Shown here in pieces: positions 1 through 413 of a stretch of DNA of 413 nucleotides. Each line of letters begins with the position of its first letter. The stretch's first letter is position 1. Made by a program: the position numbers and the translations under genes. Under the pieces are notes generated by a model that saw only the letters and a program-made list of their open reading frames with translations, ran no database searches and was not told where the DNA came from. The stretch lies in the NCBI RefSeq assembly GCF_003334355.1, contig NZ_QOWP01000108.1. One strand, written 5' to 3'. The stretch is from Escherichia coli. Its GTDB lineage: Bacteria; Pseudomonadota; Gammaproteobacteria; Enterobacterales; Enterobacteriaceae.

Positions 1-413
1 ACCTCGAAAAATCTTCCACCAGAAAGCTACCCAGTCGGCGCACCAATCCCGTGGCCATCAGATACCGTTCCGTCTGGTTATGCCCTGATGCAGGGGTAGA
101 CTTTTGACAAATCTGCATACCCGAAACTTGCAGCCGCTTATCCGTCAGGCGTGATCCCTGATATGCGTGGCTGGACGATTAAGGGCAAGCCCGCCAGTGG
201 TCGGGCCGTATTGTCTCAGGAACAGGACGGCATTAAATCACACACCCACAGCGCCAGCGTATCCAGTACGGATTTGGGGACGAAAACCACATCGTCGTTT
301 GATTACGGCACTAAATCCACGAATAACACTGGTGCGCATACCCATAGTGTTAGCGGTACGGCTGCTTCAGCCGGTGCACATACCCATTCGATGACATTTG
401 TTTCAGGTGGTTC
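1..413 (+). CDS. stf: Side tail fibre protein, lambda Stf-like, internal fragment open at both window edges; interrupted by an in-frame TAG at 97-99 (candidate pseudogene or amber allele)
   Basis: Frame +1 is open over 1-96 and 100-413, with a single stop (TAG, 97-99). The translation carries motifs I recall from lambda Stf and E. coli prophage fibre paralogs: [57 protein letters not shown] and the Gly/Ser/Thr-rich [24 protein letters not shown]. The family-like sequence continues straight across the stop, which argues for one disrupted gene rather than two adjacent genes. The reading frame enters at position 1 and leaves at 413 with no start or natural stop in view. The family-level symbol stf is used; the exact paralog cannot be told from this fragment. 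No alignment was run. Confidence 0.8.
331..390 (+). repeat. Imperfect direct repeat inside the coding sequence encoding two G-A-H-T-H-S His-box motifs
   Basis: ggtgcgcatacccat (331-345) and ggtgcacatacccat (373-387) are identical at 14 of 15 positions and both encode GAHTH in frame +1. A third His-box, SHTHS, lies at 238-252 but uses cac codons, so it is similar at protein level only. This is a coding-sequence repeat, not an intergenic repeat. Confidence 0.6.

Follow-up and report, generated by a model that had tools for sequence, protein, structure and literature searches.

A rare amber codon in the gp37-like collar region of an Escherichia coli prophage side tail fibre gene

In gp37 of phage T4, domain D10 (the 'collar') comprises residues 811-881 and 1010-1026, and domain D11 (needle and tip) comprises residues 882-1009 (PMC6957217). 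The needle holds seven iron atoms coordinated by histidines that are critical for function, folding of gp37 requires the dedicated chaperone gp38, and a tip fragment (residues 799-1026) co-expressed with chaperones binds OmpC and LPS (PMC6957217). Among lambdoid phages, lambda PaPa plates normally, with unchanged plaque counts, despite a frameshift in its side tail fibre gene stf, and side fibres speed up adsorption to OmpC+ cells by only 10-30 fold (PMC12617516). Loss of the side fibres has been reported to improve phage growth in soft-agar overlays (as stated in PMC3945230), and infecting lambdoid phages recombine with the prophages Rac and Qin through the stf-tfa region (PMC3945230). In strain K-12, stfQ of Qin is a truncated remnant of 320 aa, and stfE of e14 is annotated as a pseudogene.

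Here, a stretch of 413 nucleotides of Escherichia coli DNA (henceforth called the window) was analysed, in which an original prediction made from the letters alone had noted a TAG codon at positions 97-99 interrupting a side tail fibre reading frame.

Gene identity and domain context of the amber codon

Translation of the window returned the codon and its flanking peptide as predicted. Frame +1 contains a single stop in 137 codons, i.e., the TAG at 97-99, and the other five frames contain three to nine stops each; a 75-aa ORF in frame +2 and short minus-strand ORFs overlap the conserved coding frame and were regarded as spurious. Matches to the window (megablast) were present in 3,745 of the 5,426 finished E. 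coli genomes, where the matching gene is annotated as 'prophage tail fiber N-terminal domain-containing protein', stfR, or 'phage tail protein', and 27 finished genomes were identical to the window at 412 of its 413 bases. In one of these, Combat11I9 (locus L001), stf has 1075 codons and lies in the order gpJ, Ail/Lom, stf, tfa within a prophage adjoining appY-ompT; this relative carries CAG in place of the TAG. The window corresponds to residues 854-990 of the 1075-aa relative, with the TAG at residue 886, and thus represents the 3' portion of a side tail fibre gene of the stfR/stf family from a lambdoid prophage. The features located on the window were as follows:

1-96, plus strand: codons 854-885, the last 32 translated codons of the stfR-like gene, identical to stf of Combat11I9 (L001 6001-6096)
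37-180, plus strand: Phage Tail Collar domain (Pfam PF07484; residues 866-913 of the relative, i-Evalue 1.6e-11), with the TAG inside; window coordinates converted from residue positions of the 1075-aa relative
97-99, plus strand: amber codon TAG in place of CAG, from alignments (Gln886 of the relative, opposite Gln836 of T4 gp37, the latter number being derived here from a chain offset of 784)
100-413, plus strand: fibre coding sequence past the stop (residues 887-990 of the relative), untranslated unless suppression or restart occurs
151-165, plus strand: first in-frame starts past the TAG (GTG 151-153 and ATG 163-165)
160-163, no strand assigned: fixed recombination joint GAT/ATG with the crossover within the TA at 162-163, separate from the amber lesion and bordering the tip-tfa module
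241-249, 337-345, and 379-387, plus strand: first three His-x-His motifs, inside the window and 3' of the TAG

Pfam searches of the full-length relative placed the prophage tail fibre N-terminal domain (PF08400), by which the fibre is anchored to the tail, at residues 1-134 and weak Phage_fiber repeats after the Collar domain; the window and the contigs carrying the same TAG (see below) stop short of the 5' end of stf. No RNA families, tRNAs, or promoter-like sites were detected in the window, and two weak terminator-like hairpins within its coding sequence were judged not meaningful.

The prediction of fibre-like sequence on both sides of the stop held when the relative was compared with T4 gp37. 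A 289-aa segment across the TAG site matches the gp37 tip (PDB 2XGF; E = 5e-89), and the last 215 residues of the relative constitute the match to this receptor-binding tip. The TAG falls inside the Collar domain and removes the final 190 residues. Exactly seven His-x-His motifs are present in the full-length relative (residues 934-1047), three of them within the window, and all seven lie 3' of residue 886, so that the stop precedes the whole His-box region as had been claimed. The window gene belongs to those lambdoid Stf genes whose tip is gp37-like.

Origin, distribution, and genomic context of the TAG allele

In a base-by-base alignment to Combat11I9, which was the only one of the 27 near-identical genomes to be aligned in this way, the sole difference was window position 97 (T in the window, C in the relative). 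An 81-nt query centred on the TAG had no match at 100% among the 5,239 matching places in finished genomes, which locates the single mismatch of the other 26 records within window positions 58-138. CAG was found at the position of the TAG codon in lambda, phage mEp332, and strain EC2341, T4 gp37 (2XGF) has Gln opposite the TAG, and all 120 best matches in a collection of 5.8 billion proteins carry Gln at the site. The glutamine named for homologues in the original prediction is in agreement with these data. None of the 120 best database homologues terminates at ...LMQG, and a natural gene boundary at the TAG position, the possibility against which the prediction had been set, was found in no homologue; the 1075-aa gene, the 678-aa gene of mEp332, and orf-314 of lambda all read through the site. 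Because the relatives and homologues carry CAG or Gln at this position, the ancestral codon was CAG (Gln) and was converted to TAG by one transition, i.e., by the single C-to-T change that had been proposed. Deamination of 5-methylcytosine was considered as the cause of the change; the window is without a Dcm (CCWGG) site, and this process hence does not explain it. Of the 1,233 possible single substitutions in the window codons, 44 (3.6%) create a stop, and a lone nonsense change is by itself statistically unremarkable. The same TAG in two other, non-identical sequences, described below, is not chance.

Two phage records among the matches were recorded separately. Aeromonas phage AP1 (MT713136) has 94% identity to window positions 78-197 (120 nt), which suggests very wide sharing of the collar-coding block. 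The record 'Campylobacter phage CJLB-4' matches the window as lambda does and looks like a lambda-derived or contaminated record.

The TAG allele is rare. It was absent from the 5,426 finished E. coli genomes (at all 5,239 matching places), from 21 matching places in phage records, and from 95 in plasmid records, and exact-pattern scans did not find it in IMG/VR, the GTDB representatives (one genome per species; two patterns), or the JGI metagenomes. Exact look-ups of the 885-aa truncated protein, of the 172-aa product starting at GTG, and of the partial products that a contig consisting of just the window would yield gave no match, and neither the 38-aa fragment nor the 168-aa tip was an exact member of the protein cluster collection. 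The allele was carried by two Logan contigs. Within the window, ERR4578545_89 (L014) has one deviating base (336) and ERR1948964_624 (L017) has four (240, 260, 294, and 336); a comparison of the contigs with one another gave 12 differences in 1,123 bases. At least three of the variable sites (240, 260, and 336) are standing polymorphisms that also occur among CAG alleles. These patterns point to a heritable allele that may either have spread by recombination among stf copies or have arisen more than once. We infer spread by recombination rather than recurrent mutation, although the three haplotypes are also compatible with the latter, even though the site is not a Dcm (CCWGG) hot spot.

The genomic context of the allele was read from the carrier contigs, which begin 18 nt 5' of the window start. 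The window ends 5' of the overlap between stf and tfa, and the overlap was taken from L014, L017, and L001. In L014, the tip ORF (181-687) and the 191-aa tfa (687-1262) share a stop/start overlap (TAATG), and the contig runs through tfa into a pin-type recombinase gene. The tip ORF likewise ends, and tfa (Caudo_TAP) starts, at 687 in L017, and the same arrangement was present in L001. The lambda Tfa protein has a role for Stf that corresponds to that of gp38. In the 2.2 kb of L014, from which the Rac-type context was read, the tfa-pin stretch shares 98.3% identity with tfaR-pinR of Rac, a K-12 prophage annotated as cryptic, and 99.7% with a second locus of the Rac type. The stfR gene of K-12 itself is intact (1120 aa). 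Derivation of the window from a K-12 laboratory amber allele was considered and rejected, as K-12 stfR is just 95.8% identical to the window and matches it over positions 1-356 only. In strain EC2341 (L002, 4699-6303), a gene for a TIR domain-containing anti-phage reverse transcriptase and a frameshifted recombinase gene directly follow stf-tfa; the former appears to be defence cargo, located where such genes usually sit at the end of a prophage.

Other lesions of the same gene were found in related loci. Two Rac-context contigs, L019 and L020, of which one originates from a human gut metagenome and the other from a Logan run, have CAG where the window has TAG and carry a -1 frameshift in stf. 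One G is lost in AGAGATGGCTATGG (at approximately 1380-1400 in L019 and 1155-1175 in L020), approximately 45 codons 5' of the TAG position, which changes SSRDGYGF to SSRDAMVL, and the upstream ORF stops at a TGA overlapping the ATG at window position 88. This frameshift is an independent inactivation of the same gene. Deletions of the 5' part of stf or internal deletions occur in many further loci (L005-L011, L015, and L025-L034). Lesions of such variety across strains are what a gene released from selection would be expected to show. In the window, the disabling lesion is the TAG for CAG, while intact 1075-aa orthologues exist in finished genomes. The claim of a decaying cryptic prophage was favoured for carrier L014 by its Rac-type tfaR-pinR context, and also by the independent stf lesions elsewhere; for the window itself, which includes no flanking sequence, it is no more than a candidate reading.

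Mosaic edge and fixed recombination joint in the fibre gene

Many relatives lose nucleotide similarity to the window at position 28, 31, or 37, and the homology to the tail fibre S of phage Mu (PDB 8JU3) ends near this edge. The Pin crossover sites of e14 are located approximately eight codons upstream of the homologous PVGxPxPWPS motif. Because the e14 Pin sites map there, the mosaic edge at window positions 1-37 was equated with the constant/variable junction of invertible fibre genes. A search of the window for a pix-like site (AAACC-NN-GGTTT core) returned a best match with at least 10 mismatches in 21 positions, and L014 contained no relevant inverted repeat. A Pin/Gin/Cin-type invertible segment in the window was rejected, given that there was neither a recognisable pix site nor an inverted copy.

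A further discontinuity was located at window positions 160-163. The module consisting of the tip and tfa starts at ATG163 and is joined there, always at the same exact position, to unrelated sequences on its 5' side, of which at least 11 were counted, with similarity to the window starting abruptly at 160-162 after unrelated sequence in many loci (L005-L011, L015, and L025-L034); these loci comprise different prophages, one phage-plasmid-like replicon, and one finished genome. The joints were found via look-ups of the 168-aa product starting at ATG163 and of its Val-to-Ala variant. The joint reads GAT/ATG and lies 66 nt downstream of the TAG. The left partners were as follows:

Terminase gene A, at two different positions, one of them in the finished genome of strain FT130
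A DUF968/HNH-like gene
A DUF1441 gene
The region downstream of the ParB-like and TAGT genes of a Rac-type prophage
Three different positions inside fibre genes
Three further contexts

For L011, L015, and L008, the joint was compared with an exact native copy of the left partner, the DUF1441 gene in L025 matches at 100% through the TA, and for L010 the comparison was made with a diverged relative of the left partner only. As TA or GATA is all that the partners have in common with the fibre gene, the crossover was assigned to the TA at 162-163, and microhomology at the joints amounts to 2-4 nt only. Three of the six joints checked for reading frame were in frame and three were out of frame. The joint of the L025 type was absent from all finished genomes, and the joints were hence taken to be lineage-specific events; the stfQ remnant of K-12 Qin (320 aa) is of a different kind.

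Several origins of the joint were tried and rejected. A Pin/pix crossover was dismissed, with pix mapping to approximately window positions 1-27 and thus neither to 160-163 nor to the TAG. A stable hairpin or replication stall was not indicated by the folding score (z of about 0.2). A discrete cassette with a common right end did not fit, as similarity just ends near the 3' end of tfa, and one ancient event was ruled out by the at least 11 different left partners. By eye, no Chi, EcoKI, or EcoBI site and no known transposon end was seen at the joint. Ascertainment by the look-up alone is unlikely; a control look-up with a 193-aa product (start ATG88), as would be called for a deletion ending further 5', gave no deletion joints and returned only contig edges and frameshift alleles. 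The fixed end, the variable partners, and the microhomology of 2-4 nt suggest a site-specific break followed by end joining.

Many chimeric proteins were also observed among the database homologues (P0004, P0012, P0020, P0107, P0115, and others), in which terminase, portal, major capsid, tape-measure, or ParB sequence is joined to a tip with Collar and fibre repeats, and the junctions of these chimeras are spread over stf residues of approximately 600-835. Because such chimeras are many, large deletions that spare just the fibre tip and tfa are common in E. coli prophage remnants.

One reading connects these joints with the amber codon: the TAG would be one case of a recurrent uncoupling of tip and tfa from the fibre shaft, to which the frameshift and the at least 11 deletions ending at the TA in other genomes would also belong, brought about by a dedicated site-specific process or by selection. 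This we consider improbable. If it were true, the TAG would persist on several haplotypes because loss of the connection between shaft and tip is favoured and not merely tolerated, and a free-standing tip-tfa cassette might provide incoming phages with material for recombination or yield a protein that masks receptors. The joint is in its own right the more interesting lead and, if it marks a site-specific break or recombination site, would bear on how fibre-tip modules are exchanged and retained.

Interpretation of the allele and comparison with known systems

The TAG is very probably a natural nonsense allele (CAG for Gln886 to TAG) of a dispensable prophage side tail fibre gene, and the allele is most likely null; the original observation is confirmed by the alignments, and its core interpretation is supported. 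Following the single C-to-T transition, translation in a host without an amber suppressor would end 25 residues into the gp37-like collar domain and would give an 885-residue protein that retains just a small part of the collar and has neither the needle with its iron-binding His-x-His motifs nor the head that binds the receptor. As the His-x-His iron sites are critical and gp37 needs its chaperone gp38 (PMC6957217), the truncated fibre would be expected to lose its function, with no receptor binding and probably no Tfa-assisted folding. A polar effect on the downstream tfa may be added to this: the start of tfa overlaps the stop of stf (TAATG) and termination at the TAG occurs approximately 590 nt upstream, so that the translationally coupled tfa would probably be poorly expressed. 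Lambdoid phages can do without side fibres, which have no purpose in a defective prophage, and the allele may therefore be neutral or nearly so, persisting at low frequency and passing from one background to another as stf copies frequently recombine.

Against this interpretation, a sequencing or assembly error had been listed, i.e., CAG would be the true codon and the T an artefact of the source record. The absence of the TAG from the finished genome, phage, plasmid, IMG/VR, GTDB-representative, and JGI metagenome records agrees with an error, as does the window lying one base off each of the 27 finished genomes (that very base in the one aligned). However, two independent read-archive assemblies share the same T, on contigs of 1.1 kb and 2.2 kb from different run series and with different haplotypes, a random error has a very low probability of hitting the exact base that makes a stop, and a systematic artefact would show in many more of the thousands of assemblies with this conserved block. 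Since three non-identical sequences share the same stop, a one-off sequencing error is very unlikely, and error in any form is now regarded as highly improbable. The codon could alternatively be a suppressible amber allele, from which a host suppressor such as supE (glnV, inserting Gln) would produce full-length wild-type Stf at a reduced level. The in-frame UAG stands in place of a sense codon, supE would restore exactly the residue of the relatives, suppression is favoured when UAG is followed by A (as in the UAG-A of the window), and some natural coliforms are reported to harbour amber suppressors. Most natural E. coli are, however, without suppressors, the allele differs from the laboratory stfR of K-12 (95.8% identity over window positions 1-356), no tRNA genes are present on the window, L014, or L017, all of which are short, and nothing in the data calls for suppression; this explanation is accordingly considered very unlikely as well.

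Restart of translation past the stop would split the gene, with GTG151 or ATG163 initiating a tip protein of 168-172 aa that works with Tfa independently of the shaft. Gene callers do predict a 168-aa ORF from ATG163 in the carrier contigs, and many cryptic prophages conserve this ORF, together with the tfa that follows it, as a stand-alone unit, but such a product would have only the second half of the collar domain, the window is devoid of promoter-like sites, and by reading there is no strong Shine-Dalgarno match before ATG163 in TCCGTCAGGCGTGATCCCTGAT. Moreover, with half of the six frame-checked joints out of frame and with differing upstream contexts, expression of the stand-alone unit is not assured, and a functional split gene appears very unlikely. 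Recoding of the stop codon, in which the phage would read TAG as Gln, was already ranked last in the original prediction and is effectively refuted: the TAG does stand where relatives have Gln, but the nearest relatives are 99.8% identical prophage genes of E. coli with the standard code and CAG at the site, only one in-frame TAG occurs in 137 codons, the neighbouring tip, tfa, and pin of the carriers are ordinary full-length standard-code ORFs, and no suppressor tRNA is encoded on the window, L014, or L017 (approximately 2 kb of flank). Its probability is vanishingly small.

A natural nonsense allele of an accessory fibre gene belongs to the ordinary class of prophage pseudogenes, an already known kind of lesion and not new biology. 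It adds a nonsense codon to the known ways of inactivating an accessory fibre gene of a prophage, and affects only the annotation (as a pseudogene) and the host-range prediction for that prophage. Because lambdoid phages recombine via stf-tfa, an amber allele in a defective prophage could be transferred to active phages or repaired from them, and fibre-based host-range predictions should check for such lesions, given that the allele can move between prophage and phage.

Compared with T4, the lost region of Stf is a close homologue of the collar, needle, and head of gp37 and has the same seven His-x-His motifs, while T4 cannot do without gp37 and Stf is an accessory protein in lambdoid phages. 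Gln836 of gp37, which aligns with the TAG, is located in the collar and thus outside the tip subdomain that was mapped in PMC6957217, and the amber codons in gp37 were engineered for functional mapping (PMC6957217), whereas that of the window is apparently natural. The remnants StfR, StfQ, and StfE of the K-12 prophages Rac, Qin, and e14 share the gene family and the stf-tfa-pin neighbourhood with the window gene and L014, but arose by deletion or inversion, whereas the lesion of the window is a nonsense codon. The closest precedent is the stf frameshift of lambda PaPa (orf-401/orf-314), where a point lesion in a gene of this family eliminates the side fibre but leaves the gene otherwise intact; orf-314 has 86% identity to the window and carries CAG at the site. 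In lambda PaPa, the lesion is a frameshift further upstream that leaves two ORFs and stems from laboratory stocks, whereas the lesion of the window is a nonsense codon in the collar, approximately 190 codons from the end of the gene, in an allele carried by read-archive samples.
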